64,000 nt of DNA from an uncultured Calditrichaceae bacterium. GTDB lineage: Bacteria > Calditrichota > Calditrichia > RBG-13-44-9. Positions within the stretch are counted from its first letter, which is position 1. The number at the start of each line of letters is the position of its first letter. The notes beneath the pieces were generated by a model. The model searched no databases and was not told the origin of the DNA. It saw only the letters and a program-made list of their open reading frames with translations. Positions 718 through 14,189 of this stretch are shown one piece after another. The stretch lies in NCBI GenBank assembly GCA_964495805.1, contig CAZBWV010000051.1, forward strand, positions 8,973 to 72,972. The letters are read 5' to 3'. A program made the position numbers and the translations under genes.

Positions 718-746
718 TTGACAAATTAGTTAGAATACCTTATATT
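718..746 (+). promoter_or_regulatory. sigma70-like promoter for lacI-family gene: TTGACA-17 nt-TATATT
   Basis: TTGACA at 718-723, 17-nt spacer, TATATT at 741-746, about 35 nt upstream of the ATG at 780. Confidence 0.5.
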
Positions 747-756
747 CCCAGTGCAA

Positions 757-770
757 GTTAAACGTTTAAC
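757..770. promoter_or_regulatory. perfect 14-bp palindrome GTTAAACGTTTAAC, candidate LacI-family operator (autoregulatory site)
   Basis: The sequence equals its own reverse complement and has a central CG, as LacI/GalR-type operators do. It sits between the -10 element and the start codon of the LacI-family gene. Confidence 0.55.
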
Positions 771-779
771 CTATGAGCT

Positions 780-1796
780 ATGGCTGTCACCATTAAAGAT
801 GTTGCCAAACGCGCGAATGTCTCCGTCGCCACCGTCTCCCTGGTGATTCATAATAATAGCCGAATCTCCCGGGAAACCCGCAAACGCGTCCTGAAAGCAA
901 TCCGCGAATTGAATTACCATCCCAGCCGATTTGCTCGTGGGTTGGTCTCCCAAAAAAGTGGTAATATCGGATTTATCCTCACCGAAGATCACTTCTCCCG
1001 TTCCGAACCGTTTTATACTCAGGTATTTCTGGGTACCGAATTTCAGGCCCGGGAACATGAATATTATATCTTGCTCACCACAGTGCCGGAAAACTATTCC
1101 CACAACGATCCATTACCCCGATTTGTGCTGGAAAATAATGTGGAAGGGGTCATTCTGGCCGGAAAAGTTCCCCAGGCGCTCATCGAGGGATTGGAACAAT
1201 TCCATTTACCTCTGGTATTTGTGGACTATGTGCCCCCCAGGGGAAATTATCCCGCAGTGATGATTGACAATATTGCCGGGGGATTGATGGCCACCAATCA
1301 TCTGATCGGGTGCCGCCACCGGAAAATTGCCTTTGTAGGGGGCGACCTGGATCATCCCAGCATCACCGAGCGCTTTCAGGGGTACAAAATGGCACTGGAA
1401 AAAGCCGGTATCGATTACCATTCCCGGTACGTGGTGGTCGATGAACCGTTGCCAACCAGAGAGTATGGCTATGAGGCGGGGAAGAAACTGTTAGATAAAG
1501 CCGGGGATGTTACCGCGGTATTTGCCTGTAACGATGCCATGGCGATTGGCTTGTTGCAGTACTTCAAAGAGCGTGGACTGAATGTCCCCGGGGATATTTC
1601 TCTGATTGGATTTGATGATGTGGAAGCAGACCTGTCGTTGGATCCTCCGCTTACGACCATTCGCGTCTCCAAAGTGGACCTGGGAGTGGAAGCAATTAAT
1701 CTCATCGCCGAAATTTTGAAAAAAGGACGTTCTAATCCTCACAAAATTCTGGTTCCGGTAGAGCTGGTCATTCGCCAATCGACCTGTTCCATCTGA
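780..1796 (+). CDS. LacI family transcriptional regulator
   Basis: N-terminal HTH motif IKDVAKRANVSVATVSLVIHNN...ELNYHPSRFARGL is classic LacI/GalR. It is followed by a periplasmic-binding-protein-like sugar-binding domain. Length 338 aa. Confidence 0.9.
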   Translation: MAVTIKDVAKRANVSVATVSLVIHNNSRISRETRKRVLKAIRELNYHPSRFARGLVSQKSGNIGFILTEDHFSRSEPFYTQVFLGTEFQAREHEYYILLTTVPENYSHNDPLPRFVLENNVEGVILAGKVPQALIEGLEQFHLPLVFVDYVPPRGNYPAVMIDNIAGGLMATNHLIGCRHRKIAFVGGDLDHPSITERFQGYKMALEKAGIDYHSRYVVVDEPLPTREYGYEAGKKLLDKAGDVTAVFACNDAMAIGLLQYFKERGLNVPGDISLIGFDDVEADLSLDPPLTTIRVSKVDLGVEAINLIAEILKKGRSNPHKILVPVELVIRQSTCSI

Positions 1797-1858
1797 TATT
1801 TCTTACGATTTCGATAATGCCGGAAAAGAATTTGTCGTCCCATAAATAGCTGTACTAA

Positions 1859-1872
1859 GTAAAACGTTTAAC
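1859..1872. promoter_or_regulatory. second LacI-type operator (GTAAAACGTTTAAC, 13/14 match to the site at 757-770)
   Basis: Near-identical palindrome 19 nt upstream of the start of the downstream T9SS CBM-like gene. Only two copies of the AAACGTTTAAC core were seen in the window. Confidence 0.5.
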
Positions 1873-1890
1873 TAAATTATGGAGGTCTGT

Positions 1891-3357
1891 ATGAAATTTC
1901 GCTTTCAAGCAATGACCCTGCTGGTCGGGATGATTCTGCTGACCACCGGAATCCTCCTGGCCCAAACCAACCTCCTTCCCAATGGTGATCTGGAGACGTG
2001 GGCGCCGAATTTCTGGAACAAGCTGAACGACGGATTGGGAGGTGCTTCGGTGGTGTGGACGGAGGATGCAGCGGCTCCGAATCCCTGGAATCAGGCGCTG
2101 CCGAGTTTGCGTTCGTTCAAGGTGATTAAGCCTTCGGCAACCGGTGATGTGGTAGGCTGGGTGAGTGTGAACAATGCCAAATTGTACTGGAACAATGCGG
2201 CTGGGAACGATCTGTACAATCTGAAGTTTTGGGCAAAGACCGATGGTGTGAACACCAATCCGGGCACACAGGATGAGAAGATCGGAGTTTGGTATCGGTT
2301 TTACAGTGGTGGTACGCTGATAGTGGAGAAGTTTGTGGGGGTGGATCAGAGTGTGGCCAGTAAGGATTGGACGGAGTACACCGATGGTGTTCTGGTGACC
2401 AGTGAGCCGGACAGTGTGGTGATTTCGCTGGTGATGGGCAAGGATGCCACGGGTACGGTATGGTTCGACAATGTGTACTGCAACACGAACAGCACCTGGT
2501 CGATGGGAGTGTTCAACGGGGATGCGGAGACGCCGGTTGGCTGGTTAAACTGGACGAGTTCGGATAAGATTGGGTTTGCCAACACGGTTCAGGATACGGG
2601 AGCGCACAGTGGGAACTGGGATGTATTGATGGTGGAGAAGGACACGCTGGATGATGAGATGGTGTTTTACAGTGAGCCGGTACCTGCGCAGCCGGGGAAG
2701 TGGTACAAGATAGGTGTTTGGGTAAAGACGGACAGCATCAACACGGGGGCGAACTGGTATCCCACCAATGTGATTCCGGATCGTGACAACGATCGGATGG
2801 GGATTTGCTTTTTCTTCCATCGTGCGCCGTTGCACACGGCCTGGGATTTGACCGGTGGAGATCAGTTTGCTTACATTGATCAGCGCAATCCCAGCAGTGG
2901 ATGGACGCACTATGTGGTGGTGGCTAAGGCGCCGGATGATGCGGCGGGAGTGAGCATGCGAGCTCGATTCACTTCCTTCCCCACCGGCTACGCCTGGTTC
3001 GACGATTTCTCCATCGAAGAGGTGAAAGAAGTGGTGGTTTCCATCGAAGATCCGGAAACACCGTCCACCACACTGGCCTCCAGTTACGAGTTGATGCAGA
3101 ACTATCCCAATCCGTTCAATCCGGAAACGGTGATTGAATATCGGGTACCGCACCGCGGAAAAGTGCAGCTGAACATCTACAATATGCTGGGTCAAAAGAT
3201 TCGCACACTGGTGGACGATGTGCTCCCTGCCGGTACCTATCAGGTGGTATGGGATGGGTTGGATGATTACGGCAACCGGGTGGCTACCGGTGTGTATCTC
3301 TATCAGCTGAAGGGTCAGAATGCCCTGATTACCAAAAAAATGATGTTAATTAAATAA
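1891..3357 (+). CDS. T9SS-secreted protein with two CBM4/9/16-like beta-sandwich carbohydrate-binding modules and a type-A Por_Secre_tail C-terminal domain
   Basis: Signal peptide (MKFRFQAMTLLVGMILLTTGILLAQT). GGAGG Shine-Dalgarno 5 nt before the ATG at 1891; alternative start at 1879. Two internal repeats (GDLETW...WFDNVYC and NGDAETP...AWFDDFSIEEV). C-terminus NYPNPFNPETVIEYRVP...GVYLYQLKGQNALITKKMMLIK. Confidence 0.7.
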   Translation: MKFRFQAMTLLVGMILLTTGILLAQTNLLPNGDLETWAPNFWNKLNDGLGGASVVWTEDAAAPNPWNQALPSLRSFKVIKPSATGDVVGWVSVNNAKLYWNNAAGNDLYNLKFWAKTDGVNTNPGTQDEKIGVWYRFYSGGTLIVEKFVGVDQSVASKDWTEYTDGVLVTSEPDSVVISLVMGKDATGTVWFDNVYCNTNSTWSMGVFNGDAETPVGWLNWTSSDKIGFANTVQDTGAHSGNWDVLMVEKDTLDDEMVFYSEPVPAQPGKWYKIGVWVKTDSINTGANWYPTNVIPDRDNDRMGICFFFHRAPLHTAWDLTGGDQFAYIDQRNPSSGWTHYVVVAKAPDDAAGVSMRARFTSFPTGYAWFDDFSIEEVKEVVVSIEDPETPSTTLASSYELMQNYPNPFNPETVIEYRVPHRGKVQLNIYNMLGQKIRTLVDDVLPAGTYQVVWDGLDDYGNRVATGVYLYQLKGQNALITKKMMLIK

Positions 3358-3734
3358 ACACCTCTTGCTGGTTGTTGTGTGGTCCCCTATGTCTGGCTGC
3401 CCTTCCTCTGGGAAGAGGGGGGGTGGCCGTAATATCCAGATGTGAAGTTCTGAAATGATTCTGGACGAAGCAGTCCGTTTTTGCTTTGGGTTTTATGAGA
3501 AGTGTATTTACGAAACCGTTGTTTAGATGTTGCCATGTGGAAGGGAAAACAGATAGGTCTTTTACGTATCATGTGATCGGTTCCGTGGGGAAATAGCGCG
3601 TGTTTGCCGCAATTGACCCGGAACGCGGGTAACAATCAGGAAATACACAGAGGATAATCAGAAATAGAAAATCATTCGACTTTAGTATAGAGCAAGGTTA
3701 ATTTATTTGAATCAATAGTCCGGGGAGGCTTTCC

Positions 3735-6440
3735 ATGCGCCGCCTACCAGTTTATTGGGATATGCCCGTTCAAATCATTGCCCTGCTTCTGATATTTCTG
3801 TCCCTGAGCTTTGCCGGTACCACCGGGAAAATTGTGGGTCGAATTGTGGATGCATCCACCGGGGAGCCGTTACCGGGAGTTAACGTACTGGTGGAAAACA
3901 CAACCTACGGTGCGGCAACGGATGTGGATGGCACTTTTTTAATTATCGGGATTCCGCCGGGCACATACACCCTGCGGGCCATGATGATTGGTTACAACGA
4001 CATGGTAGTCAAAAATGTGCGGGTGAGTGCGGACAAAACCACTCACGTGGATATGAAGTTACAGCAAACCACCCTGGAGTTAGGCGAGGCTATCGAGGTG
4101 ACAGCTGAGCGGCCACTGGTCAAAAAAGACCTGACCTCCACCGAATCCGCCGTAAGTAGCGATGTAATTGAAGCACTACCGGTGGAAACATTCTCTGATG
4201 TGGTCAATTTGCAGGCCGGGGTCATAGACGGACACTTCCGTGGCGGACGGCTGGGAGAGGTGGCTTATATGGTGGATGGCGTGCCGGTGAACGACGTGTA
4301 CTCCGGTTCCTACGCCATCGAGATGGAAAACAACGCCATCCAGGAACTGACTGTCATTAGCGGTACCTTCAATGCGGAGTACGGGCAGGCTATGTCCGGT
4401 GTGGTGAATATTGTGACCAAGGACGGTACGGACCATTTTACTGGGGATCTCAGTGTTTACGGAGGAGATTATCTCAGCACGCACGACGATATCTTCTGGA
4501 ATATCAAGGATTTCAATCCCATATTCAATTTGCAGGGGAACCTTAGCGGTCCGGTTCCCGGATTCGGGAAGAAGTTGAATTTTTTCCTCTCCGGACGCTA
4601 CTACGAAAATGCCGGTTACATTTACGGAAAGGAAGTTTTTCTCCCCACAGATAGTTCAGATTTCAGTCCGGATGACCCGGAAGACCGAATTGTGGAGAGT
4701 CATGGGGTACGCTATCCTTTCAGCGAGCAACTGGCACAGGATCTCATTCATCGGGCAAAGGCAGTGTCCATGAATCCCTCCCGGCGCCTGACCGGAGATT
4801 TGAAACTGACTTACCGTTTAACCGGAACGGATAAAATATCTGTGGACGGAATTTACCAGAATCGCCAGTGGCGGGAATACGATCACCGATTTCGCCTGAA
4901 TCCGGATGGCGATTACAAACGCTTTCAGCAGAGCGTGACGGCGCTGACACACTGGAACCATGTGTTCAGTGCACGCACTTTTATGGATGTGCGCTATTCT
5001 TACTTTTACACGGAGTACGACCAGTACGTGTACGAAGATCGGTTCGATCCCCGGTATGTTCCCGCTTCGCGATTGCAGTTAACCGGGGCCAATGCTTTTC
5101 TGGCCGGTGGTCAGCAGATGTGGCAATTCCATCGCAGTACCATGAGCCATCTTATTAAAGCAGAACTCACCAGTCAGGTGACCAACACCCATCAGCTCAA
5201 AGGAGGTGCACAGGTGCGCCGACACCGCCTGTGGCTTCACGAATATGAAGTGATTCCGGAAGACCCCGATCGCATGGCGCCCATCACTTCCTTCAATAAT
5301 AACATGTATCTGCACCATCCGCTGGAGTTTTCCGCCTACCTTCAGGACAAAATGGAATTTACCTACATGATTGTGAATGCTGGTGTTCGCTTCGATTATT
5401 TCGATCCCGATGGACAGGTGCCGGTGGATTTCTCCAACCCCTCCCAATCCCCCATGCGTAAAGCCGAAAGCAGCTGGCAGGTGAGTCCCAGATTGGGTAT
5501 TGCCTATCCCATTTCCGAAAAAGGGGTCATTCACGTTTCCTATGGTCATTTCTTCCAGGTGCCCAATTTCTTCTATCTGTACACCAACCCCGAGTTCGAT
5601 GTATTTCCGTTGCAGGGAACTCCCTCCCCACCGCCGCAATCGCTAATTAACACCATGGGAAATGCCGAGCTGAAACCGCAGAAAACGGTGATTTACGAAA
5701 TCGGGCTTCAGCAGCAGGTGGGAAGTATGTTTGGGCTGACCGTGACGGCTTATTACAAGGACATCCGTAACCTGCTGGGGACACAGGTGCTGGAAACCCA
5801 GCAGGGAATAAAATATGCGCGTTACATTAACCGGGATTATGGGTTTGTCCGCGGTATTACCCTGGAGCTGGAAAAGCGATATTCCAACGGAATTAGCGGA
5901 AGCGTGGACTACACCTACCAGATTGCCAAGGGAAACGCTTCGGATCCCAATACCGCCTTTTTAGATGCTCAGAGCGATCCGCCCAAACAAACGGAAAAGC
6001 AACTGGTTCCGCTGAACTGGGATCGTCGGCATCAGATTAATGCTACACTGACCCTGGGGACACCGGGGAAATTTGCCCTGACGCTGATTATGCGTTATGG
6101 TACCGGTCTGCCGTACACCCCCACCTTCCAGAATGTACAAACAGCCGTGGAAAACAGTGGGCGCAAACCGGATGAATTCTACATCGATTTGTATTTCAAT
6201 AAAGTGTTTAAATGGGGTGGGATGGAGTACAGTTTTTTCACCCGAATCTACAATTTGCTGGATCGGCTGAACGAGAGGAACGTGTTTACCGATACCGGTC
6301 GCGCGGGATATACCCTGGCTCCATTGTATGTGGGCGGGCTGCGTCCCCGCGGGTTAAACACCCTGGATCAGTACTTCATTCGACCCGATTTTTATTCCGA
6401 ACCGCGCCGGGTGCAAATTGGACTGGAACTTAGATTTTAA
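3735..6440 (+). CDS. SusC/RagA-like TonB-dependent receptor (CarboxypepD_reg N-terminal domain + plug + beta-barrel)
   Basis: Signal peptide. N-terminal GKIVGRIVDASTGEPLPGVNVLVENTTYGAATDVDGTFLI carboxypeptidase-regulatory-like domain. Plug motifs (VTAERPLVKKDLTSTESAVS). 901 aa, ending in ...GLELRF with a terminal Phe. GGGGAGG Shine-Dalgarno 7 nt upstream. Confidence 0.85.
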   Translation: MRRLPVYWDMPVQIIALLLIFLSLSFAGTTGKIVGRIVDASTGEPLPGVNVLVENTTYGAATDVDGTFLIIGIPPGTYTLRAMMIGYNDMVVKNVRVSADKTTHVDMKLQQTTLELGEAIEVTAERPLVKKDLTSTESAVSSDVIEALPVETFSDVVNLQAGVIDGHFRGGRLGEVAYMVDGVPVNDVYSGSYAIEMENNAIQELTVISGTFNAEYGQAMSGVVNIVTKDGTDHFTGDLSVYGGDYLSTHDDIFWNIKDFNPIFNLQGNLSGPVPGFGKKLNFFLSGRYYENAGYIYGKEVFLPTDSSDFSPDDPEDRIVESHGVRYPFSEQLAQDLIHRAKAVSMNPSRRLTGDLKLTYRLTGTDKISVDGIYQNRQWREYDHRFRLNPDGDYKRFQQSVTALTHWNHVFSARTFMDVRYSYFYTEYDQYVYEDRFDPRYVPASRLQLTGANAFLAGGQQMWQFHRSTMSHLIKAELTSQVTNTHQLKGGAQVRRHRLWLHEYEVIPEDPDRMAPITSFNNNMYLHHPLEFSAYLQDKMEFTYMIVNAGVRFDYFDPDGQVPVDFSNPSQSPMRKAESSWQVSPRLGIAYPISEKGVIHVSYGHFFQVPNFFYLYTNPEFDVFPLQGTPSPPPQSLINTMGNAELKPQKTVIYEIGLQQQVGSMFGLTVTAYYKDIRNLLGTQVLETQQGIKYARYINRDYGFVRGITLELEKRYSNGISGSVDYTYQIAKGNASDPNTAFLDAQSDPPKQTEKQLVPLNWDRRHQINATLTLGTPGKFALTLIMRYGTGLPYTPTFQNVQTAVENSGRKPDEFYIDLYFNKVFKWGGMEYSFFTRIYNLLDRLNERNVFTDTGRAGYTLAPLYVGGLRPRGLNTLDQYFIRPDFYSEPRRVQIGLELRF

Positions 6441-6454
6441 TCACGAGGATGACA

Positions 6455-9400
6455 ATGAAACGATTGTCATGGAAAACGTTGCTGGTTGCCTGTATGGTTT
6501 GGGTGTTCGCCCGGAGTGGGTGGGCACAACGAACCCCGGATCCCAACGTGGGAAACACCGAGTTGCGTCGCCAGGGAATTATGGATGGCAACCTGGTACG
6601 CACCATCTTTATTAACTGGGGCGAAATTGCTCACTGGCCGGATTCCCCTTCCGGGGAATGGCCCAAAGGGACCGGCCATCAGTATGTGGATGGTGTGGCG
6701 TTAATTGTTCAGGGACGCGCCATCGACAACAACGGAAACGTTATCCATCCCATGGAAACCCAGTACCGGGAATTTGTGGACAAAGGACCACACGACGAGC
6801 TGTGGGGCTGGGGTCCGCTTCCCGGCTATTTTAACGAAGAAGGAAACAGCCCTGCGATGAGCAACGATCCGCTTACCTGGCCGGACTACTGGCCGGATAA
6901 ACCGGACGGCTGGGTAAATCCCAACGAGGTGCGCAACGACCAGGATGATGATGGCAACGGATTGGTGGACGATCTGGTGTACTGGAATGGCTTCTTCGGA
7001 AAAGGTGTGCGCAATGCCGATCTGGAAACGTATTTTGTGTTTGATGACGATCCCGATGAGGAATGGGATTTTTATCCCGATCCGGCGCGTCCCGATCGTC
7101 GGGGAATGGGTCTGGAAGTGGCTGCGCGCTATTTTCAGTGGTCGCAGGTGCTGGCCGAAGACGTGATTTTTGCTGTGTACTTCATCACCAACGAGGGCAA
7201 GTACAATTACGATAGCACCTACTACTGTTTTTACATTGATTGGGGGATTGGGGGGACGGACGATTCCTCGGACGATACCGGTGATTACGACACCTATCTG
7301 GACATTGCCTGGGCATGGGATTACGATGGATTTGGTTCCCCGGGACACTGGCATCCGGTAGGAGTGGCGGGTTTCGCCTTTCTGGAGAGTCCCGGCATTG
7401 CCGATGACGGAGTGGATAACGACGATGATGGCATCGTGGACGAACGGCGCGATTCCGGCCCGGGAACCTGGCTGAGCGAATATCCCTACGGTGTGGATCC
7501 GGTGAAATACGAAGCCTATTTCGGGCATCCTCCCGCACCTCACTGGAGCGGTGATGAAGATGGCGACTGGAAACCCTACACCGATGTAAACCAGAACGGT
7601 CAGTGGGACGAGGGAGAACCGCTGAATGATGATGTGGGCGAAGACGGGCTGGGTCCCAACGATTTTGGTTATCCAGGACCCGATGTGGGCGAAGGAGACG
7701 GAATCCCCACAGCCGGTGAACCAGATTTCGATTACACCGACAAAGATGAGTCGGACCAGATTGGGTTAACCGGTTTCCGCATCTTTCCGGTTCATACTTA
7801 CGAATTGTGGAATGAGGAGCAGGATTGGGAAGTGTTTCGCTCCGCGCCACCACCCCATAGCAATCAAGTAACCGCCAATCTGGGGATGTTCTTCTCCTCC
7901 GGTCCTTTTCCCCTGAAAGCAGGGCAGACCGAAAATTATTCCATGGCGTTGCTGTTCGGAGAAGATAAAGATGATCTGGTGCTGACCAAGAAAACCATTC
8001 AACAAATTTATAATGCCGATTATCGCTTTGCCAAACCACCGGAAAAACCGCGACTCAAGGCGGTGATTCCGGGAGATAATCGGGTAATTCTGGTATGGGA
8101 TGACCGGGCCGAACGCTCCTGGGATCCCTTCCTGCAGGAATACGATTTTGAAGGGTACCGGATTTACCGCAGTACCGAACCGGAATTTCTGGAAACCCGA
8201 CTTATCACCGATGCCTACGGGCGGTTAACCTTCCGCAAACCCATCGCTCAGTTCGATTTGAAAAATGAATGGAGCGGTCTGCATCCCATCGATGTATCGG
8301 GTGTTCATTTCAATCTGGGAAACAATACCGGCTTGTCCCATTACTATGTGGATACCGATGTGAAAAACGGACAAACGTACTACTACGCAGTGGTATCTTA
8401 CGATCACGGTCTGGTGGATACCAGTGCAACCGGTACGCTGGTGGGATTGGCTCCCGCGGAGTGTACCAGTAAAATTCAGAAGGATATTTCCGGGAATGTG
8501 CAGGTAGATATTAACACAGCAGTGGTCACCCCCTCGGCGCCGGTTGCCGGCTATGTACCGCCCGAATTAGTGGGCGATTTTGTCCGGGAAACCGTGGGCA
8601 CCGGCGAGGTGAATCTGGAGTTTCTCATTCCCGATTCCGTACGGGATGGACATACCTATTCCATTGAGTTCGGTGATACTTCTTTCTTCCACAACGAAGG
8701 GAATTCGTACTATGTGATATATGATATTACCGGCGGAGAGAAAATTCCCAGAACGGATACCTTGTGGATTGATGGCGACAGCCAGTCTCCACTGGTGGAT
8801 GGCTTTGTGCTAACCATCCATAATGATGCCTGCGATCTGGATTACGACAACACCGGCTGGCTGGTGGGTTCTTCCACCTACAAATGGCGAGTGAATCAGG
8901 ACAGCCGCTTCTCCAATACCAATCCCGCATTGAATTTCAATATCAACTATCCTGCAGATTTCGAGGTAACCTTTTCCGATCAGATAATCGATACTGCGGA
9001 GAATGTACTGTTCCCGCCGGATGTGCCGACTAAATTTTCCATATACAACGTTACGGAGGATTCTGCCGCTCATTTTATGTTCCTGGAATTTGATAATCCC
9101 GATTCCACGCTCAGTCCGTACTATCCGGATGACGAGCAGATGGAAAGTGCCATTATCTGGGTACCCGATCCCAGACCGAGTAATCCGTTACACATCAAAA
9201 CTTCCTGGCGGCTCTATTTTGAGGCGGATACCACGGTGGATCACATGGTGCCGCCACAACCGGGCGATATTTTCCGCATCGCCACCAAAAAGCCGTTCCG
9301 CACCGGCGACCGTATCGAGTTTACTGTACGGGGTCAGCGCTACGATGTGGAAAAAGCGAAAAGCGATATGGATCAGATTGCTGTCGTTCCCAATCCCTAT

Positions 9401-9682
9401 GTGGTTACGGCTGCCTGGGAACCCAATTCTCCCTATCGTTTCGGACGGGGTGAGCGGCGGATTTACTTTATCCATCTGCCCAAAAAGTGTACCATTCGCA
9501 TCTACACCCTGCGGGGGTATCTGGTGGATACCATCGAACACAACAGTTCGCTGGAGAACGGACAGGAAGCCTGGGATATGCTGAATAAGGACGGACAGGA
9601 AATTGCCTATGGAATTTACATCTACCATGTGGATGCTCCGGGGGTAGGTGAGAAAATCGGGAAGTTTGCCATTATTAAATAA
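6455..9682 (+). CDS. large acidic cell-surface protein with TSP3-like Ca-binding Asp-rich repeats and a variant, extended T9SS-like C-terminal domain (cassette copy 1)
   Basis: Signal peptide (MKRLSWKTLLVACMVWVFARSGWAQ). Repeats DQDDDGNGLVDD, DNDDDGIVDE and GDEDGDWKPYTDVNQNGQWDEGE. FN3-like YDFEGYRIYRST. C-terminus VVPNPYVVTAAWEP...CTIRIYTLRGYLVDTIEH...GIYIYHVDAPGVGEKIGKFAIIK. GAGG lies 6 nt upstream of the ATG at 6455; the alternative ATG at 6449 has no spacing. Confidence 0.75.
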   Translation: MKRLSWKTLLVACMVWVFARSGWAQRTPDPNVGNTELRRQGIMDGNLVRTIFINWGEIAHWPDSPSGEWPKGTGHQYVDGVALIVQGRAIDNNGNVIHPMETQYREFVDKGPHDELWGWGPLPGYFNEEGNSPAMSNDPLTWPDYWPDKPDGWVNPNEVRNDQDDDGNGLVDDLVYWNGFFGKGVRNADLETYFVFDDDPDEEWDFYPDPARPDRRGMGLEVAARYFQWSQVLAEDVIFAVYFITNEGKYNYDSTYYCFYIDWGIGGTDDSSDDTGDYDTYLDIAWAWDYDGFGSPGHWHPVGVAGFAFLESPGIADDGVDNDDDGIVDERRDSGPGTWLSEYPYGVDPVKYEAYFGHPPAPHWSGDEDGDWKPYTDVNQNGQWDEGEPLNDDVGEDGLGPNDFGYPGPDVGEGDGIPTAGEPDFDYTDKDESDQIGLTGFRIFPVHTYELWNEEQDWEVFRSAPPPHSNQVTANLGMFFSSGPFPLKAGQTENYSMALLFGEDKDDLVLTKKTIQQIYNADYRFAKPPEKPRLKAVIPGDNRVILVWDDRAERSWDPFLQEYDFEGYRIYRSTEPEFLETRLITDAYGRLTFRKPIAQFDLKNEWSGLHPIDVSGVHFNLGNNTGLSHYYVDTDVKNGQTYYYAVVSYDHGLVDTSATGTLVGLAPAECTSKIQKDISGNVQVDINTAVVTPSAPVAGYVPPELVGDFVRETVGTGEVNLEFLIPDSVRDGHTYSIEFGDTSFFHNEGNSYYVIYDITGGEKIPRTDTLWIDGDSQSPLVDGFVLTIHNDACDLDYDNTGWLVGSSTYKWRVNQDSRFSNTNPALNFNINYPADFEVTFSDQIIDTAENVLFPPDVPTKFSIYNVTEDSAAHFMFLEFDNPDSTLSPYYPDDEQMESAIIWVPDPRPSNPLHIKTSWRLYFEADTTVDHMVPPQPGDIFRIATKKPFRTGDRIEFTVRGQRYDVEKAKSDMDQIAVVPNPYVVTAAWEPNSPYRFGRGERRIYFIHLPKKCTIRIYTLRGYLVDTIEHNSSLENGQEAWDMLNKDGQEIAYGIYIYHVDAPGVGEKIGKFAIIK

Positions 9683-9750
9683 ATTCATTTAGCCGGTAAA
9701 ACGGATGGAATCCGGTAAAATGTAAACATGAAAACGAACAGGTAAGCGGT

Positions 9751-10776
9751 ATGAAAGCCATTTCCCTTGTTCTGAGTCTGTTACTTTTGTGGAGTGTTTC
9801 GGGGCTATCGCAATACAGCAGTAAAGTGTCCAATGTGGGCACCACCGCTGCTCCTTTTCTGGAAATCGGGGTAGGTGCCCGGGCAATTGGCATGGGGGGC
9901 GCGTTCGTTTCCACTGCCAACGATGCCAGTGCCCTGTACTGGAATCCCGCCGGCGTGGCGCGATTGAAACGGCCGGAATTACTGTTCGTCCACACCAACT
10001 GGATTGCTGATATTCGCTACGATTTTGTGGGCGCCACCCTTCCCTTAGGGCGTTTTGGAACCCTGGGCGGTAGCATTACCAGTCTGGGTATGGACGACAT
10101 GAAAGTGCGCACCGAAGACCAGCCCGAAGGTACCGGCGAATACTTCAATGCCAGCGATCTGGCGCTGGCTATCTCCTATGCCTTTAATCTGACCGACCGG
10201 TTTTCCATCGGATTTAATGCCAAATACATTCACCAGCGCATCTGGAAGGAGAGCTCGCGCGGTTTTGCCCTGGACATCGGAACGCTATTTACCACCGGAT
10301 TTTACGGTATGCGCATCGGTGCAGCGCTCACTAATTTCGGAACCGATATGCGTCTGGAAGGTGATGATCTGCTGGTGTATCATGATATCGATCCCTACCA
10401 TCTGGGGAATAACGAACGTATATTTGCGGAGTTGAAGACGGATAAATGGCCCCTACCGCTCAATTTCCAGGTGGGGGTGGCAATGGAGGTGCTGAACAAC
10501 ACCCGGCACCGCCTGACTCTGGCCACCGAAGCCATGCATCCCATCAATAATACCGAAAGCATGAATGTGGGAATGGAATATGCATTTCGCGAGCTGTTTT
10601 TCCTGCGCGGGGGATATCGTAACCTGTTTCAGCGAGATAGTGAAGAAGGATTTACCCTGGGTGCCGGTTTTGCTGTGCGATTTCTGGGAAATTTTAAGGT
10701 AACCGTCGATTACGCATATGCCGATTTCGGACGGTTACAGAATTCCCAGCGGTTTTCCATTAATATGATGTTTTAG
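9751..10776 (+). CDS. FadL/PorV/PorP-like outer-membrane beta-barrel protein (cassette copy 1)
   Basis: Signal peptide. N-terminal motif GVGARAIGMGGAFVSTANDASALYWNPAGVARL resembles the FadL/TodX NPAGL region. Length 341 aa, alternating amphipathic strands, C-terminal ...SINMMF with a terminal Phe. Confidence 0.6.
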   Translation: MKAISLVLSLLLLWSVSGLSQYSSKVSNVGTTAAPFLEIGVGARAIGMGGAFVSTANDASALYWNPAGVARLKRPELLFVHTNWIADIRYDFVGATLPLGRFGTLGGSITSLGMDDMKVRTEDQPEGTGEYFNASDLALAISYAFNLTDRFSIGFNAKYIHQRIWKESSRGFALDIGTLFTTGFYGMRIGAALTNFGTDMRLEGDDLLVYHDIDPYHLGNNERIFAELKTDKWPLPLNFQVGVAMEVLNNTRHRLTLATEAMHPINNTESMNVGMEYAFRELFFLRGGYRNLFQRDSEEGFTLGAGFAVRFLGNFKVTVDYAYADFGRLQNSQRFSINMMF

Positions 10777-10873
10777 CAGTAGCTGTTAGCATTTGATATC
10801 GCCTCCTGCGGAGCACGTCTGGTGGAGGGGATTGATTCGACCACGAACGAAAGGAGAACAAAAAACGATTGAC

Positions 10874-12193
10874 ATGGAGGGCAACATCAGGCAAAGGTTC
10901 TGGATAACCGGGATAGGACCCCGCATTTTTCTGGGGGTCATTTTTTTTATTCTGATAGGTTGTCATCGCGAAAAACAGTCTGCGGAGCAGGCCATTGTGT
11001 ATTGGTCCTCCAACAACAATTACGAGATAGAGTTTGCCCGCGCGGTGGTGGCGGATTGGAACCGCTTGCATCCCGACGTACCGGTGAAAACTCAGCCGGT
11101 TCCCGAGGGACAATCCAGCGAAGAGGTGATCCTGGCTGCGGTGGTGGGGAAAACCACTCCGGATATCTATTCCAACATGTGGCAGGGCGATGTGGCATTT
11201 TATGCTTCCTCCGGTGTGCTGGTTGCATTGGACACTATTCCCGGTTTTCTGGAATTTCTCCGTCAACGCTGCGACAGCGCCACCCTCCAGGAAGTAACTG
11301 CGGAAAACGGGCATATTTATCAGATTCCCTGGAAAATGAATCCCATCATGATGATTTATAATCGAAAGGCGTTGCGGGAAATCGGTTTTCCGCGGCCGCC
11401 GCAAACCTACTCCCGTTATCTGGAGGCCGCGCGCCGGTTCAGCCGGGACGCTGACGGAGACGGGTATGTGGACCACTGGATTGGTTATACCAATGTTTCG
11501 GTCACCTGGTGGCAACGGTTGTTCGATTTTTACCCGCTCTACCTGGCAGCGTCCGGTGGGGCACCGCTGGTTCGGGGGAATCGAGTGATGTTCGAAAATG
11601 CCCATGCCGTGGAAGTGTTCCGTTTTCTGAAAACCCTGTTCGAGAAAAACTACTTCCCCCGGGAACAGCTTTCTGCCCGGCAGGATGCGTTTCTCTCCGG
11701 CATCATTGCTACACGAATTACCGGTCCGTGGGATATCATGCATGTGGAACGCTTTAAACCGAAAGGCTTCGAATATGCCTTTACTTCCGTACCCCGACCC
11801 GATGAGTGCGAAGGGCCGGTGTACACGTACTGCGATCCGAAAAATATCGTCATTTTTAACACCTGCACGCGACCGCAACAGGCGGTGGAATTTGTGAAGT
11901 TTATGTTGAGTGAGAAGAATGACTTCCGTTTGCTGGAAATGACACGTCAGCTACCCAGACGCAGGGATTTGTTCTCCAGCGATCGGTTTATGGCCTATTT
12001 TCTGGCTCACCCTCGCATGCTGCCCTTTGCCCGGCAGGCGCGGTATATCCGGGGAACAGACAATTCCCCGGTGCTGAAGGAAATTTTTGATGCCATTTCT
12101 CAGGAATTTGAAGCGTGTGTGGTGTACGGCACCAAATCCCCGGAACAGGCGATTCACGATGCCGCCACCGCAGCGCAGCTATTGTTAAAATAA
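10874..12193 (+). CDS. ABC transporter substrate-binding lipoprotein, family 1 (sugar/oligosaccharide)
   Basis: Lipobox (FFILIGCH) after the start at 10874; the upstream in-frame ORF from 10793 is unlikely to be translated. Size and composition fit extracellular solute-binding family 1. It is followed by two MalF/MalG-type permeases. Confidence 0.7.
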   Translation: MEGNIRQRFWITGIGPRIFLGVIFFILIGCHREKQSAEQAIVYWSSNNNYEIEFARAVVADWNRLHPDVPVKTQPVPEGQSSEEVILAAVVGKTTPDIYSNMWQGDVAFYASSGVLVALDTIPGFLEFLRQRCDSATLQEVTAENGHIYQIPWKMNPIMMIYNRKALREIGFPRPPQTYSRYLEAARRFSRDADGDGYVDHWIGYTNVSVTWWQRLFDFYPLYLAASGGAPLVRGNRVMFENAHAVEVFRFLKTLFEKNYFPREQLSARQDAFLSGIIATRITGPWDIMHVERFKPKGFEYAFTSVPRPDECEGPVYTYCDPKNIVIFNTCTRPQQAVEFVKFMLSEKNDFRLLEMTRQLPRRRDLFSSDRFMAYFLAHPRMLPFARQARYIRGTDNSPVLKEIFDAISQEFEACVVYGTKSPEQAIHDAATAAQLLLK

Positions 12194-12205
12194 CGGACGA
12201 GCCGC

Positions 12206-13069
12206 ATGAAACGGAAGTTGAAGAAACAACTGATTCCTTATGTGATGGTGTCGCCTTATGTACTGCACTTTTTGTTGTTTGTGTTGTTTCCGGTAGTATT
12301 TTCGTTTGTACTCATTTTTCACCGCTGGAATATCATTTCGCCTATGGAATTTGTGGGATTGGGCAATTTCGACCGCCTGTTTCATGACCGCTTGTTTTTC
12401 AAATCTCTGGGGAATACGCTAATTTTTTTGATTATCCACATTCCTTTACAAATTGCTGTGGCGTTGTTCTTTGCCGAATTGCTTAATCAGCGAATTCGGT
12501 TGCGGGGATTTTTCCGTGCGGCGTACTTCCTGCCGGTTGTGGTTTCCGGTGTGGTGGTCACTGTGTTATGGCAGCAATTGTACGGATTCGATACCGGTTT
12601 GCTGAATCGGTTACTGGTCAAACTGGGGCTGGGCCGCGTACCCTGGCTGGTAAGTCCCAAACTGGCTATGCCCTCCATTGCACTGATGGCAACCTGGAAA
12701 AATGTGGGTCTGTACATTGTGTTGTTTCTGGTCGGGCTTCAGAGTGTACCCAGCCATTATTACGAAGCCGCCGAATTGGAGGGCGCCACTCACTGGCAGA
12801 AGTTCTGGTATATTACCCTGCCCATGATTAATCCCACCATTTTTATGGTGGTGGTGCTTTCCACCATTGGCGGATTTTCTCTGTTTATTGAACCGTATGT
12901 GATGACCGGAGGCGGACCGTTAAATAGCACCCTCTCGGCGGTGTTGTACATTTACAAGCAGGGCTTCTTTTTCTACCACATGGGTTATGCCGCTACCCTG
13001 GGATTCTTCTTTGCCGCATTAATTTTGATGGTGGTGTTCTTACAGAAGCGGTTTGTGGAAAGGGAGTAG
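12206..13069 (+). CDS. ABC transporter permease (MalF/UgpA-like)
   Basis: Six-TM permease with the EAA-like loop region (YEAAELEGATHWQKFWYITLP). Confidence 0.8.
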   Translation: MKRKLKKQLIPYVMVSPYVLHFLLFVLFPVVFSFVLIFHRWNIISPMEFVGLGNFDRLFHDRLFFKSLGNTLIFLIIHIPLQIAVALFFAELLNQRIRLRGFFRAAYFLPVVVSGVVVTVLWQQLYGFDTGLLNRLLVKLGLGRVPWLVSPKLAMPSIALMATWKNVGLYIVLFLVGLQSVPSHYYEAAELEGATHWQKFWYITLPMINPTIFMVVVLSTIGGFSLFIEPYVMTGGGPLNSTLSAVLYIYKQGFFFYHMGYAATLGFFFAALILMVVFLQKRFVERE

Positions 13070-13370
13070 GGAAAGAAGGGGAAATAAGGGGGATAAGGAA
13101 ATAGATGAAATGTAGGATGGGGAAGTAGAATGAGTACTGAGGGTTTTATCTCATGAACAGGTGTGCAATTGGTGGTGCGGTTAAAAGTTTGTCAGACCTG
13201 ATTTCAGGAGGGTGAGGGGGAGCATAACACATTGATTTTTCGCTGTTTTCGCGAATGAATATATACGGCAGATTTTTCCTGGAATTTTGGTATTCGCTTC
13301 ATGATTGCTCGGTGTTTCTTTAATAGCAGTATAAGCGGTATTTTCGGGTGAGTGAAAAAAAGGGATTCAG

Positions 13371-14189
13371 GTGAAAGTGATTAAAAAAATCGGGTTGTAC
13401 GGAATTTTATTTGTGGGAGCAGTGGCATTCACCTATCCGTTTTTATGGATGCTGTTTGCTTCCCTGGCACCTGAATCGGAAATCGGGCGACTGACTTTGT
13501 TTCCTTCCGCCCTGACCCTGCACAATTATCAGCAGGTTGTGGAAAAAATCCCTATTTTTCGTTCTTTACTGAACAGCCTGATTGTTTCCTTCAGCGTCAC
13601 GGTCGGTGTTCTGGTGTTCAGCTCCATGGTGGGTTACGCTCTTTCTCGCCTGCGCTTCAAAGGTCGCAACCTGATTTTCTACATTATCATTTTTACCATG
13701 ACTCTGCCGTTTCAAATTACACTGATTCCCCAGTATATTTTGATGGTGAAATTTGGCTGGGTGGACAGTTACCTGGCATTAATTGTTCCCTACCTGCTCA
13801 GCGCTTTTGCCATCATCATGTTCCGACAATATTTTATGACCATTCCGCAGGATTTAATTGATGCGGCACGCATTGATGGATGCTCGGAATTTCAGATCCT
13901 CTTTCGCATCCTCTGGCCCAACTCCGTGCCCGCTCTGGTTACGGTGGGCATCATTACCTTCATGACTTCCTGGAACGAAGTGCTCTGGCCCATCATTGTA
14001 ATTCGTAACGAAAAGTTAATGACCATGCCTCAGCTGGTAACCCTGTTTGTAGTGGGAGGGCGTTCCGAATCCCAGCTGGGAGTGAAACTGGCCTCTGCCA
14101 CCATGCTGGCATTGCCCATTATTGTGGCGTACATCTTCTTCCAGCGGTATTTCATCCAGAGTATGGCCAGCACAGGAATGAAGGAGTAA
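13371..14189 (+). CDS. ABC transporter permease (MalG/UgpE-like)
   Basis: Six-TM permease with conserved IDAARIDGCSEFQILFRILWP (EAA motif). Confidence 0.8.
   Translation: MKVIKKIGLYGILFVGAVAFTYPFLWMLFASLAPESEIGRLTLFPSALTLHNYQQVVEKIPIFRSLLNSLIVSFSVTVGVLVFSSMVGYALSRLRFKGRNLIFYIIIFTMTLPFQITLIPQYILMVKFGWVDSYLALIVPYLLSAFAIIMFRQYFMTIPQDLIDAARIDGCSEFQILFRILWPNSVPALVTVGIITFMTSWNEVLWPIIVIRNEKLMTMPQLVTLFVVGGRSESQLGVKLASATMLALPIIVAYIFFQRYFIQSMASTGMKE

Follow-up and report, generated by a model that had tools for sequence, protein, structure and literature searches.

A conserved gene cassette of a TonB-dependent receptor, a large secreted protein and a PorV-like barrel appears to be a nutrient-import module of many FCB-group bacteria

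Introduction

What does a TonB-dependent receptor (TBDR) do when the gene behind it encodes not a SusD-like lipoprotein, but an acidic secreted protein of about 1,000 residues? The question is raised by a 64,000-nt stretch of DNA from an uncultured Calditrichaceae bacterium (the window), in which the genes of a TBDR, such a large protein (BIG) and an outer-membrane barrel lie side by side. A sequence-only reading had proposed a SusD-less analogue of the SusC/SusD complex with a glycan-capture role. No description of the cassette was found in the literature that we searched. As set out below, it appears to be a nutrient-import module of many FCB-group bacteria.

Results

The cassette in the window and in FCB lineages

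The copy-1 cassette (3735–10776, + strand) consists of co-directional genes for a TBDR, BIG and a PorV/PorQ-family barrel. A paralogous triplet, copy 2, is located at 33195–39904 on the − strand; an HMM search found exactly these two copies in the window.

3735–6440, +: TBDR1, 901 residues, TonB-dependent receptor with a signal peptide
6449–9682, +: BIG1, 1077 residues, acidic secreted all-β protein of a family without annotation
9751–10776, +: PorV1, 341 residues, PorV/PorQ-family outer-membrane β-barrel, the cassette's private copy
33195–34214, −: PorV2, 339 residues, PorV/PorQ-family barrel, PF19572 match of 28 bits
34231–37053, −: BIG2, 940 residues, no Pfam family
37109–39904, −: TBDR2, 931 residues, Pfam architecture as in TBDR1

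TBDR1 and BIG1 are separated by 8 nt, BIG1 and PorV1 by 68 nt. Public gene calls start BIG1 at 6455 (1075 residues), and with this start the ORF coordinates reproduce the gaps of 14 and 68 nt on which the claim of tight linkage had been based. BIG1 and BIG2 share 31% identity over 611 aligned positions in the C-terminal ∼595 residues (E 4e-70); their N-terminal domains match weakly (E 2e-4). TBDR1 and TBDR2 are 49% identical over the N-terminal 236 residues and 26% over the barrel; PorV1 and PorV2 are 45% identical (E 2e-107).

We collected 83 BIG genes in 79 loci from at least eight FCB lineages, including Calditrichota, Ignavibacteriota, Neomarinimicrobiota, KSB1, Eisenbacteria, Krumholzibacteriia, Stahlbacteria and Rhodothermales. 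A PorV-like gene lies directly 3′ of BIG in 76/76 testable cases and a TBDR gene directly 5′ in 75/76; the script counted 72 TBDRs, its three misses being ORF-extension artefacts in which the TBDR is visible. The triplet is conserved as a functional unit, and the alternative named beforehand, that BIG homologs usually lack a neighbouring TBDR or barrel gene, does not hold. Because gene order and strand are the same in practically all of the related loci that we inspected, the arrangement is not a matter of chance.

Pairwise distances of the three cassette proteins are correlated in 58 complete cassettes (r = 0.84–0.93). For BIG and TBDR r is 0.93, and partial r is 0.45–0.66, depending on the BIG region, after removal of the PorV signal; between the C-terminal domain (CTD) of BIG and the PorV-like barrel the partial correlation is weak (0.16 with the TBDR signal removed). 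Tandem cassettes occur in several loci (L022, L043, L045 and L056), and paralogs of the same genome have drifted apart at each of the three genes, with identities of 31–49% in the window and 39–43% in L045. As the three proteins co-diversify and the paralogs have diverged, each cassette has its own barrel instead of sharing one generic PorV.

Genomic context

The genes that surround the two cassettes are as follows.

780–1796, +: LacI-family regulator (Pfam LacI and Peripla_BP_3), head of the copy-1 locus
1879–3357, +: UP1, secreted, non-catalytic, two CBM-like β-jelly-roll modules and a type-A T9SS CTD
10793–14189, +: sugar ABC importer, solute-binding protein (SBP_bac_1/8) and two permeases (BPD_transp_1 twice)
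15707–22244, +: block of mannan-processing genes, made up of the next three
15707–16636, +: GH130 mannooligosaccharide phosphorylase (GH130, 194 bits)
16633–19800, +: PKD/LamG T9SS cargo, 1055 residues (Laminin_G_3 and Por_Secre_tail)
19803–22244, +: GH2 β-mannosidase (Glyco_hydro_2_N2, 185 bits; 5n6u, E 3e-171)
39998–41719, −: UP2, upstream cargo of copy 2, BNR-repeat protein (BNR_2) with a type-A T9SS CTD (Por_Secre_tail, 36.5 bits)

GH130, the GH2 β-mannosidase, LacI and the sugar ABC transporter, which begins 16 nt 3′ of PorV1, confirm that copy 1 is embedded in a mannan locus, as had been supposed. In the Pfam analysis, TBDR1 is the only outer-membrane transporter candidate of the mannan operon. 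The LacI gene holds the same position in the orthologous loci L080 and L084, the former with the same ABC importer genes after the cassette and the latter from Caldithrix abyssi DSM 13497; C. abyssi grows on glucomannan (PMC5317091).

Copy 2 and locus L081 have peptidase surroundings; in L081, M16, M1 and M28 peptidases follow the cassette. The regulators at the window cassettes are LacI and RpiR. Because copy 2 and L081 sit among peptidases, the cassette is not glycan-specific. The substrate of copy 1, judging by its locus, would be β-mannan, and that of copy 2 is probably peptides. Among 108 downstream ORFs of related loci, the commonest Pfam hits were 17 ABC permeases, 8 solute-binding proteins, 4 MFS transporters and 19 T9SS cargos, as well as GH16 (14), malectin (10), PF10091 (9), GH9 (5) and GH3 (5) proteins.

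The cassette usually has a fourth conserved gene upstream, encoding a type-A T9SS cargo with CBM-like modules; it was overlooked in the sequence-only reading. Judged by its modelled modules, UP1 is probably a surface glycan-binding protein. The arrangement with a UP2-type protein recurs in L082, and upstream cargos elsewhere carry three CBM_4_9 domains (L006) or CBM9 (L029).

Receptor and barrel

TBDR1 contains a CarboxypepD_reg N-terminal extension (residues 33–118; PF13715, CarbopepD_reg_2, 73.4 bits), as the sequence-only reading had stated, a plug (residues 130–223; PF07715, 26.8 bits) and a TonB barrel (PF00593, 100.1 bits), all above the cut-offs. It also passes the Pfam model OMP_b-brl_4 (PF25183; 57.1 bits, cut-off 30). 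The assignment of the receptor to the SusC/RagA type failed: TIGR04056 scores 60.3 bits against a cut-off of 368, and the N-terminal extension alone aligns. In the PDB, its sequence matches nothing but a SusC homolog, at N-terminal residues 20–157; an anammox S-layer model matches the receptor N-terminal domain weakly.

PorV1 passes the PorV/PorQ family model NF033709 (245.7 bits, cut-off 90), remains under the equivalog cut-offs of the PorV (89/250), PorQ (93/220) and PorV2 (120/325) models, matches Flavobacterium johnsoniae PorV (6h3i_F) with an E value of 2.5e-15 and ends with an aromatic residue, Phe. FadL/Toluene_X scores 24.5 bits, below its cut-off of 29.7. Of the earlier label FadL/PorV-like, "PorV-like" is therefore correct, whereas "FadL" is valid only at the superfamily level. 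A PorP/SprF identity was rejected, as the barrel is of the PorV/PorQ family and PorV1 has no PorP_SprF Pfam match.

BIG, a widespread family of all-β surface proteins

BIG1 is acidic (pI 4.34; D+E 16.7%) and has an SPase-I type signal peptide. Pfam gave no match for it. More than 4,200 homologs were found, all those with a name being called hypothetical, and the family comprises 2,938 clusters at 50% identity (E ≤ 1e-30). BIG is thus a widespread family, yet one without a Pfam or NCBIfam model. The UniRef name of one relative begins with "Fibronectin". Lipobox-like motifs are rare in BIG relatives (4/130), and by its sequence BIG is predicted to be a non-lipoprotein.

The AlphaFold2 model of BIG1 (pLDDT 87.8, pTM 0.72) is nearly all-β and not a helical TPR fold. 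Together with the lack of a SusD match by Pfam or NCBIfam, this bears out that the partner of the receptor is not SusD-like; SusD, SusE and SusF are likewise absent among the structure matches listed for the model. Four regions were distinguished.

6527–8023, +: N-terminal ∼500-residue β domain (residues 27–525) with acidic loop insertions
8036–8413, +: fibronectin-III-like domain, FN3 (residues 530–655), one of the two regions with the highest conservation in the family
8414–9343, +: variable middle region (residues 656–965), ∼18 β-strands, pLDDT >90
9377–9679, +: CTD (residues 977–1077), divergent type-A T9SS sorting domain

According to the model, the N-terminal domain is probably a galactose-mutarotase-like β-supersandwich. 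It best matches the N-domains of GH15, GH94 and GH65 enzymes, which are non-catalytic; the (α/α)6 catalytic domain of these enzymes is lacking in BIG1. The domain is kept across cassettes with differing predicted substrates, which fits a structural role as much as ligand binding. The supersandwich fold is also found in true enzymes, e.g. aldose epimerase, and this counts against a capture function.

The FN3 domain, which gave Foldseek matches to FN3 arrays, has seven invariant residues, Trp550, Glu555, Gly569, Tyr570, Asp635, Tyr644 and Tyr646. The middle region is the least conserved (0.27–0.46 in the conservation profile); its mean identity is 0.30 in 58 cassettes, compared to 0.49–0.57 in the other regions, and it is a candidate specificity region. 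The Asp-rich, putatively Ca-binding repeats reported for BIG are real in copy 1, where D-x-[DN]-x-[DN]-G occurs three times (residues 164, 323 and 379), but they fall in variable, gap-rich loops and are subfamily-specific; BIG2 has none.

The T9SS-like nature of the CTD was confirmed by profile–profile comparison. Although type-A CTD HMMs fail to detect it, the BIG CTD shares homology with the type-A CTDs of the window itself (hhalign probability 96%, E 4.8e-9). Among solved structures, PorZ and PorU are closest to it; of the T9SS proteins, these are the two that keep their CTDs, bound to PorQ and PorV, respectively (PMC10202324). The conservation profile of BIG peaks at FN3 and the CTD. The CTD of BIG1 contains a conserved insert (residues 984–1004; nt 9398–9460) of low model confidence, which is what partner-binding segments typically look like. 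CTD proteins were described as Bacteroidota-restricted in a 2023 T9SS review (PMC10202324), and the C. abyssi genome paper did not find Bacteroidetes-type gliding machinery (PMC5317091).

Discussion

Proposed role and alternatives

In the reading that we prefer, and to which we give somewhat better than even credence, the T9SS exports BIG, the private PorV-like barrel holds its uncleaved tail, and BIG serves as the capture or lid subunit of the receptor. BIG and the upstream CBM protein would cross the inner membrane via Sec, and the outer membrane via the type IX pathway, which would recognise their C-terminal β-sandwich. The CBM protein would be displayed on the surface as a normal type-A cargo and bind polymer. 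The BIG CTD, with its family-specific insert, would stay uncleaved on the PorV/PorQ-type barrel; this retention is modelled by analogy on PorZ–PorQ, PorU–PorV and the type-B cargos on cognate PorP/SprF barrels, and it would fix BIG to the outer membrane next to the receptor with no need for a lipid anchor. While the conserved FN3 and CTD half would keep BIG at the receptor, the N-terminal supersandwich and the variable middle domains would capture the ligand, an oligosaccharide or a peptide, and pass it on to the TBDR as a lid or loading platform. TonB-energised uptake would bring the ligand into the periplasm, where the solute-binding protein would take over, and the ABC permeases, GH130 and GH2 β-mannosidase would complete utilisation under LacI control. 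Points against this reading are the weak partial correlation between the BIG CTD and the barrel, the restriction of CTD proteins to Bacteroidota stated in the 2023 review, and the lack of Bacteroidetes-type gliding machinery reported for C. abyssi.

Shuttling is the canonical role of PorV (PMC10202324), and the secretion of F. johnsoniae type-B cargos itself requires cognate shuttles (PMC12618676). The barrel may thus be a dedicated shuttle that extracts BIG from the translocon, BIG being a released or LPS-attached binding or scaffold protein with no stable receptor complex. We consider this unlikely: the constant position of BIG between TBDR and barrel would be surprising if BIG had nothing to do with the receptor, the BIG–TBDR correlation persists after removal of the PorV signal, and the CTD is conserved above expectation for a disposable signal.

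It would also be consistent with the OMP_b-brl_4 match and the CarboxypepD_reg domain of TBDR1, a domain that Myxococcus Oar likewise has, if the receptor were an Oar-like TonB-dependent exporter of BIG and/or the upstream cargo, with the barrel receiving them, so that the cassette would by itself make up a small secretion and attachment system. PopC protease secretion needs Oar, a TonB-dependent transporter (PMC6434023), the C-terminus of BIG is similar to those of PorU and PorZ from the attachment complex, and C. abyssi reportedly has no gliding machinery. However, 4 of the 6 proteins with a type-A CTD that the window encodes lie away from any cassette, and the general T9SS route is therefore more parsimonious. 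Moreover, the periplasmic binding protein, ABC system and intracellular GH130 and GH2 enzymes need an outer-membrane importer, for which no other candidate is present, and BIG contains no protease or sortase domain; we give this reading little credence. A catalytic BIG, with its supersandwich acting as a new surface-anchored glycan-active or epimerase-type enzyme before uptake, seems very unlikely as well. The fold does occur in enzymes, but the strongest matches are non-catalytic domains, no catalytic family was found by Pfam or NCBIfam, and, since the family spans mannan, β-glucan (GH16), cellulose (GH9) and peptidase loci, a single catalytic specificity is unlikely. Finally, BIG is large, acidic, FN3-containing and predicted to be T9SS-exported, like the SprB-type adhesins that also have cognate barrels, and the weak S-layer match of the receptor points the same way. 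An adhesin, S-layer-like or motility protein linked to receptors by chance and without an uptake role is nevertheless hardly credible, given that the cassette lies in catabolic operons with regulators (LacI and RpiR here; GH, ABC and peptidase genes elsewhere) and has multiple divergent paralogs per genome, as SusCD pairs do.

If the capture or lid reading is true, the cassette is an equivalent of SusCD and the utilisomes in which surface lipoproteins are replaced by T9SS tethering; "SusD-less analogue" is then reasonable as a functional analogy. Because M. roseus (Ignavibacteriota) is reported with a SusCDE operon (PMC3534657), the cassette is not simply a substitute for a missing SusD.

Comparison with known systems

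Like SusC/SusD (RagA/RagB) and the utilisomes, the cassette has a TBDR with a CarboxypepD_reg extension encoded immediately 5′ of its surface partner, additional surface glycan-binding proteins in the operon, and CAZymes, a regulator and inner-membrane transport nearby; as with SusC/SusD, there are many divergent paralogs per genome, peptide types included (cf. RagAB). Different from SusC/SusD, its receptor fails the SusC/RagA model (60 bits vs 368), the partner is a ∼1,000-residue all-β non-lipoprotein with a T9SS-type CTD instead of a ∼65-kDa TPR lipoprotein, the third gene, for a PorV/PorQ-family barrel, is obligatory, and the accessory binding proteins are T9SS cargos and not lipoproteins. 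That a non-SusD all-β surface protein can be a capture or lid subunit is shown by Bacteroides BtuB–BtuG (PMC10404256), a TonB-dependent transporter with a β-propeller surface lipoprotein as its lid. Different from BIG, BtuG is a lipoprotein, and no T9SS domain or anchor barrel is known to be involved.

PorZ–PorQ and PorU–PorV resemble BIG and its barrel in that a surface protein's CTD is retained by a PorV/PorQ-family barrel, here by analogy; the BIG C-terminus is closest to their CTDs and PorV1 passes their barrel family model. BIG lacks the propeller of PorZ and the peptidase of PorU, PorV1 scores too low for the equivalog models PorV, PorQ and PorV2, and the BIG–barrel pair is multi-copy and always TBDR-linked, whereas theirs are single housekeeping complexes. 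For type-B CTDs, it is established that the cargo and its cognate barrel, a PorP/SprF protein, are genetically linked; the cargo is uncleaved there, and anchoring by the PorP/SprF-like barrel has been proposed (PMC10202324; PMC12618676). As in the SprB–SprF pairs, a cargo adjoins its private barrel gene and several specific pairs occur per genome; different from them, the BIG CTD is type-A-like and its barrel of PorV/PorQ type, and the known pairs are adhesins not linked to receptors.

TBDR1 resembles Oar of Myxococcus xanthus in passing OMP_b-brl_4 and in its CarboxypepD_reg N-terminal domain. Unlike the cassette receptor in our preferred reading, Oar has been linked to the export of proteins (PMC6434023), and it is not known to have neighbours of the BIG or PorV-like kind. 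The BamG–BamH pair of the Bacteroidota BAM (PMC12578637) differs in that BamH is a lipoprotein and BamA serves as the partner barrel, and PorV1 matches the BamG model negligibly (22 bits vs 250); the likeness is that a 14-stranded barrel of the FadL/PorV superfamily holds a large extracellular protein beside another barrel.

Organization of the two cassettes

Three co-directional ORFs, encoding proteins of 901, 1077 and 341 residues, are located at the left part of the window and are separated by gaps of 8 nt (14 nt if the public start at 6455 is used) and 68 nt. They encode one TonB-dependent receptor (TBDR1), one very large secreted surface protein (BIG1) and one PorV-like barrel (PorV1), respectively. 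HMM search revealed exactly two copies of this cassette in the window; copy 2 (TBDR2, BIG2 and PorV2) is paralogous, and each of its three proteins is a homolog of the corresponding copy-1 protein (26–49% identity). The closest named relatives of BIG1 are Calditrichia and Caldithrix MAG proteins (77–78% identity). The loci discussed below are as follows:

3735–10776, plus strand: copy-1 cassette (TBDR1, BIG1, PorV1)
14286–15611, plus strand: YPO2471-like ORF of 441 residues, inside the mannan operon
16633–19800, plus strand: PKD/Big_9/LamG protein of 1055 residues with a type-A T9SS C-terminal domain (CTD), overlapping the GH130 stop by 4 nt
22311–22386, plus strand: tRNA-Phe (GAA), directly after GH2, at the end of the copy-1 locus
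33195–39904, minus strand: copy-2 cassette (TBDR2, BIG2, PorV2)
33195–41719, minus strand: copy-2 region, including an upstream BNR-repeat cargo
22468–33069 and 42441–51782: surroundings of the copy-2 region

The receptor and the barrel

TBDR1 contains one signal peptide, one CarboxypepD_reg-like N-terminal extension, one plug and one TonB-dependent barrel, all above the Pfam thresholds. The plug (PF07715) scored 26.8 bits against a cut-off of 23.9 and the barrel (PF00593) scored 100.1 bits against 27; TBDR2 likewise reaches the Pfam gathering scores of both. The CarboxypepD_reg domain that the sequence-only reading had placed at the N-terminus of the receptor is indeed present, as PF13715 matched residues 33–118, before the plug, with 73.4 bits. 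That reading also regarded the receptor as a SusC/RagA-type transporter, an assignment that has to be abandoned: TBDR1 scored 60.3 bits with TIGR04056, compared to the curated cut-off of 368.25, and the alignment covers only residues 32–158, namely the N-terminal extension. The sole PDB sequence match of TBDR1 is the N-terminus of a SusC homolog. Both receptors passed the OMP_b-brl_4 model of Oar-like transporters (PF25183, gathering score 30 bits), TBDR1 with 57.1 bits in three stretches and TBDR2 with 66.2 bits.

The third protein had been described as a FadL/PorV-like barrel, and only the PorV half of this description stands. PorV1 matched the PorV/PorQ family NF033709 with 245.7 bits over residues 31–340 (cut-off 90), whereas its FadL match (PF03349) reached 24.5 bits over residues 48–78 only (cut-off 29.7). 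The best solved relative is the PorV of F. johnsoniae (PDB 6h3i_F, E = 2.5e-15). As PorV1 falls below the equivalog cut-offs of PorV (NF033710, 89.4 versus 250 bits), PorQ (NF033711, 92.9 versus 220 bits) and PorV2 (NF052325, 120.5 versus 325 bits), it represents a separate subfamily. Neither PorV-like protein of the window matched PorP/SprF (PF11751) at E ≤ 0.01.

Fold of the large surface protein

BIG1 is acidic in nature (pI 4.3) and carries one SPase-I type signal peptide; BIG could be assigned to no Pfam or NCBIfam family. The AlphaFold2 model of BIG1, built on a 130-sequence alignment (pLDDT 87.8, pTM 0.72), is almost wholly β, with four short helices. Following the signal peptide, it contains one N-terminal domain of ∼500 residues with long acidic loops, one FN3-like domain (residues 530–655), one variable region of ∼18 strands (residues 656–965), one short helix and one C-terminal β-sandwich (residues 977–1077). 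Conservation in the family is highest in the CTD and the FN3-like domain and lowest in residues 656–965 and the acidic loops. The earlier view that the partner of the receptor has no SusD likeness was borne out: no SusD model of Pfam or NCBIfam was matched, the model is nearly all-β, and a lipobox is not conserved (4 of 130 relatives). The predicted Asp-rich repeats were found in part; BIG1 has such motifs at residues 164, 323 and 379, all in variable loops, but copy 2 lacks them.

Reg_prop matches in 5 of 41 scanned BIG relatives indicated a modular N-terminal half in this family. The long relatives P0403, P0408 and P0445–P0447 (1,476–1,592 residues) have apparent extra β-propeller inserts.

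The C-terminal domain of BIG

A T9SS-like CTD had been proposed for the large protein. Direct search did not support it: neither BIG1 nor BIG2 matched the type-A models PF18962 and TIGR04183 at E ≤ 0.01, among 41 BIG relatives only one matched them, weakly, and one type-A HMM built from the cargos of the window did not recover BIG. Profile comparison, however, favours homology in fold and motifs; with hhalign, the BIG CTD profile aligned to the five type-A CTDs of the window with 96% probability (E = 4.8e-9, 67 columns). VPNPY of BIG corresponds to YPNPF of type A, and the terminal GKFAIIK corresponds to KMLLVK. The C-termini of PorU and PorZ are the only PDB matches of the BIG family profile, the only NCBIfam matches and the top Foldseek match of BIG; all of these are weak. 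The type-B models PF13585 and TIGR04131 did not match BIG1. Sub-threshold CHU_C matches occur in 8 of 41 BIG relatives (best E = 1.6e-4), and ordinary type-A cargos of the window cross-match alike.

Between its first motif and the next strand, the BIG CTD contains one insert of 10–17 residues, AAWE...GRGERR in the BIG1 subfamily. In BIG1, it is located at residues 984–1004. The insert is conserved in sequence, yet it is the only extended segment with pLDDT below 50; the two features together are what one would expect if it becomes ordered on a partner.

No T9SS core gene (SprA/Sov, GldK-N/PorK-N or PorU) is located within the window. The six type-A CTD proteins encoded there, four of which are not cassette-linked, argue indirectly for a T9SS in the host. 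Bacteroidetes-type gliding machinery was reported to be absent in Caldithrix abyssi (PMC5317091).

Conservation and co-diversification of the triplet

BIG relatives were collected with one degenerate pattern, run on a single genome of each GTDB species, and at least 588 matches were confirmed; the cassette appears in hundreds of species genomes. For the best 79 loci of these, HMMs derived from the two window copies were run on all ORFs. The 79 loci span Calditrichota, Ignavibacteriota, Neomarinimicrobiota, KSB1, Eisenbacteria, Krumholzibacteriia, Stahlbacteria, Rhodothermales and assorted 'Bacteroidota' MAGs; matches labelled Ignavibacterium album and Melioribacter sp. are MAGs. Among their 83 BIG genes, all 76 with room downstream are directly followed by one PorV-like gene on the same strand. 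Receptor genes were scored before BIG in 72 of the 76 cases with room upstream; for three of the remaining four, the receptor is visible and was missed because of stop-to-stop ORF artefacts on high-GC contigs. The sole true exception (L073, positions 1–3849 of one short 3.8-kb contig) is of BIG-PorV-BIG order, with no receptor gene separating the barrel from the second BIG. Several surveyed loci carry tandem pairs of cassettes. Conservation of the triplet across FCB genomes, proposed as a check of the sequence-only reading, is therefore upheld in these best 79 loci, and very strongly indicates that the three genes are a unit.

In 58 complete cassettes, the pairwise distances of receptor, BIG and barrel are correlated (r = 0.84–0.93), and divergence between paralogs of the same genome extends to all three genes; every cassette therefore retains its own barrel. 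Different from this one-per-cassette barrel, one copy of canonical PorV serves all type-A cargos (PMC12618676).

One profile search of 1.84 billion cluster representatives gave 2,938 BIG clusters (50% identity) at E ≤ 1e-30. The BIG family is large and wholly unannotated. The cassette-bearing lineages live in sediment, groundwater, marine and bioreactor habitats and are presumed degraders of detrital polysaccharide and protein.

Genomic context of the cassettes

Both window copies have one gene for a bona fide type-A T9SS CTD protein immediately before the receptor gene, as do 45 of 58 surveyed receptor rows; where it is missing, the row mostly represents a fragmented receptor or the second of two tandem cassettes. 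By homology, these upstream cargos group into three clusters, which follow the BIG subfamilies. The BNR-repeat cargo of copy 2 has the same arrangement in another surveyed locus, L082.

At copy 1, one co-directional run headed by LacI encodes the CBM cargo, the receptor, BIG, the PorV-like barrel, one sugar-binding protein, two ABC permeases, the YPO2471-like protein, GH130, the PKD/LamG T9SS cargo and one GH2 β-mannosidase (match to 5n6u, E = 3e-171). The tRNA is the only Rfam match in the window. The YPO2471-like protein matched no Pfam family, and its solved relative is the Yersinia 'putative exported protein YPO2471' (7tem, E = 7e-84). The N-terminal ∼580 residues of the PKD/Big_9/LamG protein matched no family, and the missing endo-mannanase could be hidden there. 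C. abyssi likewise has one LamG protein gene after the cassette. At 12001–14000, across the two permease genes, the GC content is lower (0.47) and the AT skew is strongly negative; one apparent gap of 300 nt (13070–13370) may simply stem from an error in calling the GTG start of the second permease. One RND efflux operon at 55910–61811 (plus strand), with one HlyD-type adaptor, one AcrB-type pump (1034 bits) and one 472-residue ORF that is possibly an outer-membrane factor, is not related to the cassette.

The PULDB definition of a PUL is a SusC/SusD pair beside CAZymes. At copy 1, GH130 and GH2 are present, SusD is absent and the receptor falls outside TIGR04056; the locus is a PUL-like, TBDT-linked CAZyme cluster. 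It recurs in another Calditrichia contig and in the cultured C. abyssi DSM 13497, which grows on glucomannan (PMC5317091). In C. abyssi, the orthologous locus occupies about 2.832–2.843 Mb of CM001402.1, with Calab_2214 encoding the upstream cargo.

The neighbours of copy 2 are two M14 carboxypeptidases, one amidohydrolase, one PLP enzyme, one Na+/H+ antiporter, one RpiR regulator, one DctM-like transporter, one AstE/AspA-like protein, two T9SS cargos, one γ-glutamyltranspeptidase (GGT) and one Asp/Glu racemase. As the DctM/AstE/DUF6305/GGT set also follows the homologous cassette in L082, the copy-2 region suggests a conserved peptide utilisation regulon, possibly for γ-glutamyl or D-amino-acid peptides. 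M16 and M1/M28 peptidases follow one Ignavibacteriales cassette. Among 108 downstream ORFs of related loci, we mainly observed ABC permeases (17), GH16 (14), malectin (10), PF10091 (9), solute-binding proteins (8), GH9 (5), GH3 (5), MFS (4) and further T9SS cargos (19). The glycan role first proposed from the mannan locus remains the likely one for copy 1, amid GH130 and GH2, but by their neighbours some cassettes probably serve peptides. From these CAZyme/ABC and peptidase neighbourhoods, the cassette appears to be a general outer-membrane module of substrate-utilisation loci, mostly for glycans and in some cases for peptides.

PPIase (rotamase) genes also recur beside cassettes (6 of the 108 downstream ORFs), for example at 1910–2983 of the Calditrichia ortholog L080. 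They recall BamJ and BamK, the PPIase subunits of the Bacteroidota BAM dome.

Proposed mechanism and alternatives

The architecture, synteny and co-diversification of the cassette, the homology of its CTD, the CBM cargo and the catabolic setting are observations, and the mechanism is inferred. In our best model, which we favour with moderate confidence, BIG would be exported by the T9SS and held through one uncleaved CTD on its private PorV-like barrel, where it would act as the capture or lid subunit of the receptor. At copy 1, the T9SS would export both BIG and the CBM protein, and the latter would bind polymer on the surface. The modified CTD of BIG would remain on the PorV/PorQ-type barrel, anchoring BIG beside the receptor; TonB-driven import would then feed the periplasmic binding protein and ABC system and, finally, GH130 and GH2. 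The anchoring step is modelled on known pairs. The CTD of PorZ is retained on PorQ and that of PorU on PorV (PMC10202324); type-B cargos need a neighbouring PorP/SprF barrel of their own, and cognate barrels were proposed to shield CTDs from cleavage (PMC10202324; PMC12618676); and in BamG-BamH one FadL-type barrel is the platform for one large extracellular protein next to another barrel (PMC12578637). More broadly, and more tentatively, many FCB-group lineages, in this survey mainly Calditrichota, Ignavibacteriota, Marinimicrobia, KSB1, Eisenbacteria, Krumholzibacteria and Rhodothermales, may possess an undescribed outer-membrane uptake machine, in which one giant T9SS protein on its private PorV-like barrel serves as TBDT lid or capture subunit and T9SS-anchored CBM proteins serve as accessory binders.

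The barrel might instead just shuttle BIG, which would then act independently of the receptor; we consider this unlikely, although it deserves the most weight among the alternatives. Because the receptor passes the OMP_b-brl_4 model and protease export in Myxococcus depends on one Oar-type TBDT (PMC6434023), the cassette could also be an export and attachment device. However, two type-A cargos of the window are linked to a cassette but the other four are not, and the operon needs an outer-membrane importer, which makes this reading improbable. Catalysis by the BIG supersandwich is equally improbable, since one single family serves many substrates and matches no catalytic family. An adhesin or S-layer role of BIG fits poorly with the regulated catabolic context, and we regard it as the most improbable of all.

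If the broader reading is true, the cassette would be one lipoprotein-free 'utilisome'; the PorV/PorQ family would gain a second function, as a permanent structural component, and nutrient import would be tied directly to protein secretion. With an orthologous mannan-type locus and growth on glucomannan, C. abyssi DSM 13497 makes the model directly testable in one cultured host.

Comparison with known systems

The accepted hallmark by which polysaccharide utilisation loci are found and interpreted is the SusCD pair, on which the prediction tools for PULs rely; the cassette, which has no SusD, would therefore be missed. It is of note for being widespread, unannotated and invisible to SusD-based detection. 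Once recognised, it could serve as a genomic marker of substrate-utilisation loci in Calditrichota, Ignavibacteriota, Marinimicrobia, KSB1 and relatives, annotate one very large 'hypothetical protein' family, widen the idea of cognate barrels and uncleaved CTDs from T9SS housekeeping and adhesins to nutrient transport, and provide one test of a TBDT lid without surface lipoproteins. Full-text literature searches, the relevant genome papers and one 2026 review of bacterial glycoside transporters gave no description of the cassette or the BIG family, which is not proof of novelty. The cassette matches the generic models of TBDR and of the PorV/PorQ family.

As M. roseus was reported to have one SusCDE operon (PMC3534657), at least one phylum has both the cassette and SusCD, and the former is not a simple replacement of the latter. 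Functionally, it resembles both SusCD utilisomes and BtuB-BtuG; like SusCD and RagAB, it would serve glycans and, in some loci, peptides. Its proposed anchoring resembles that of PorZ-PorQ, PorU-PorV and SprB-SprF. Nevertheless, the cassette belongs to none of SusCD, BtuB-BtuG, PorZ-PorQ, PorU-PorV and SprB-SprF: it combines one TBDT and its surface partner with one T9SS cargo and its cognate barrel.
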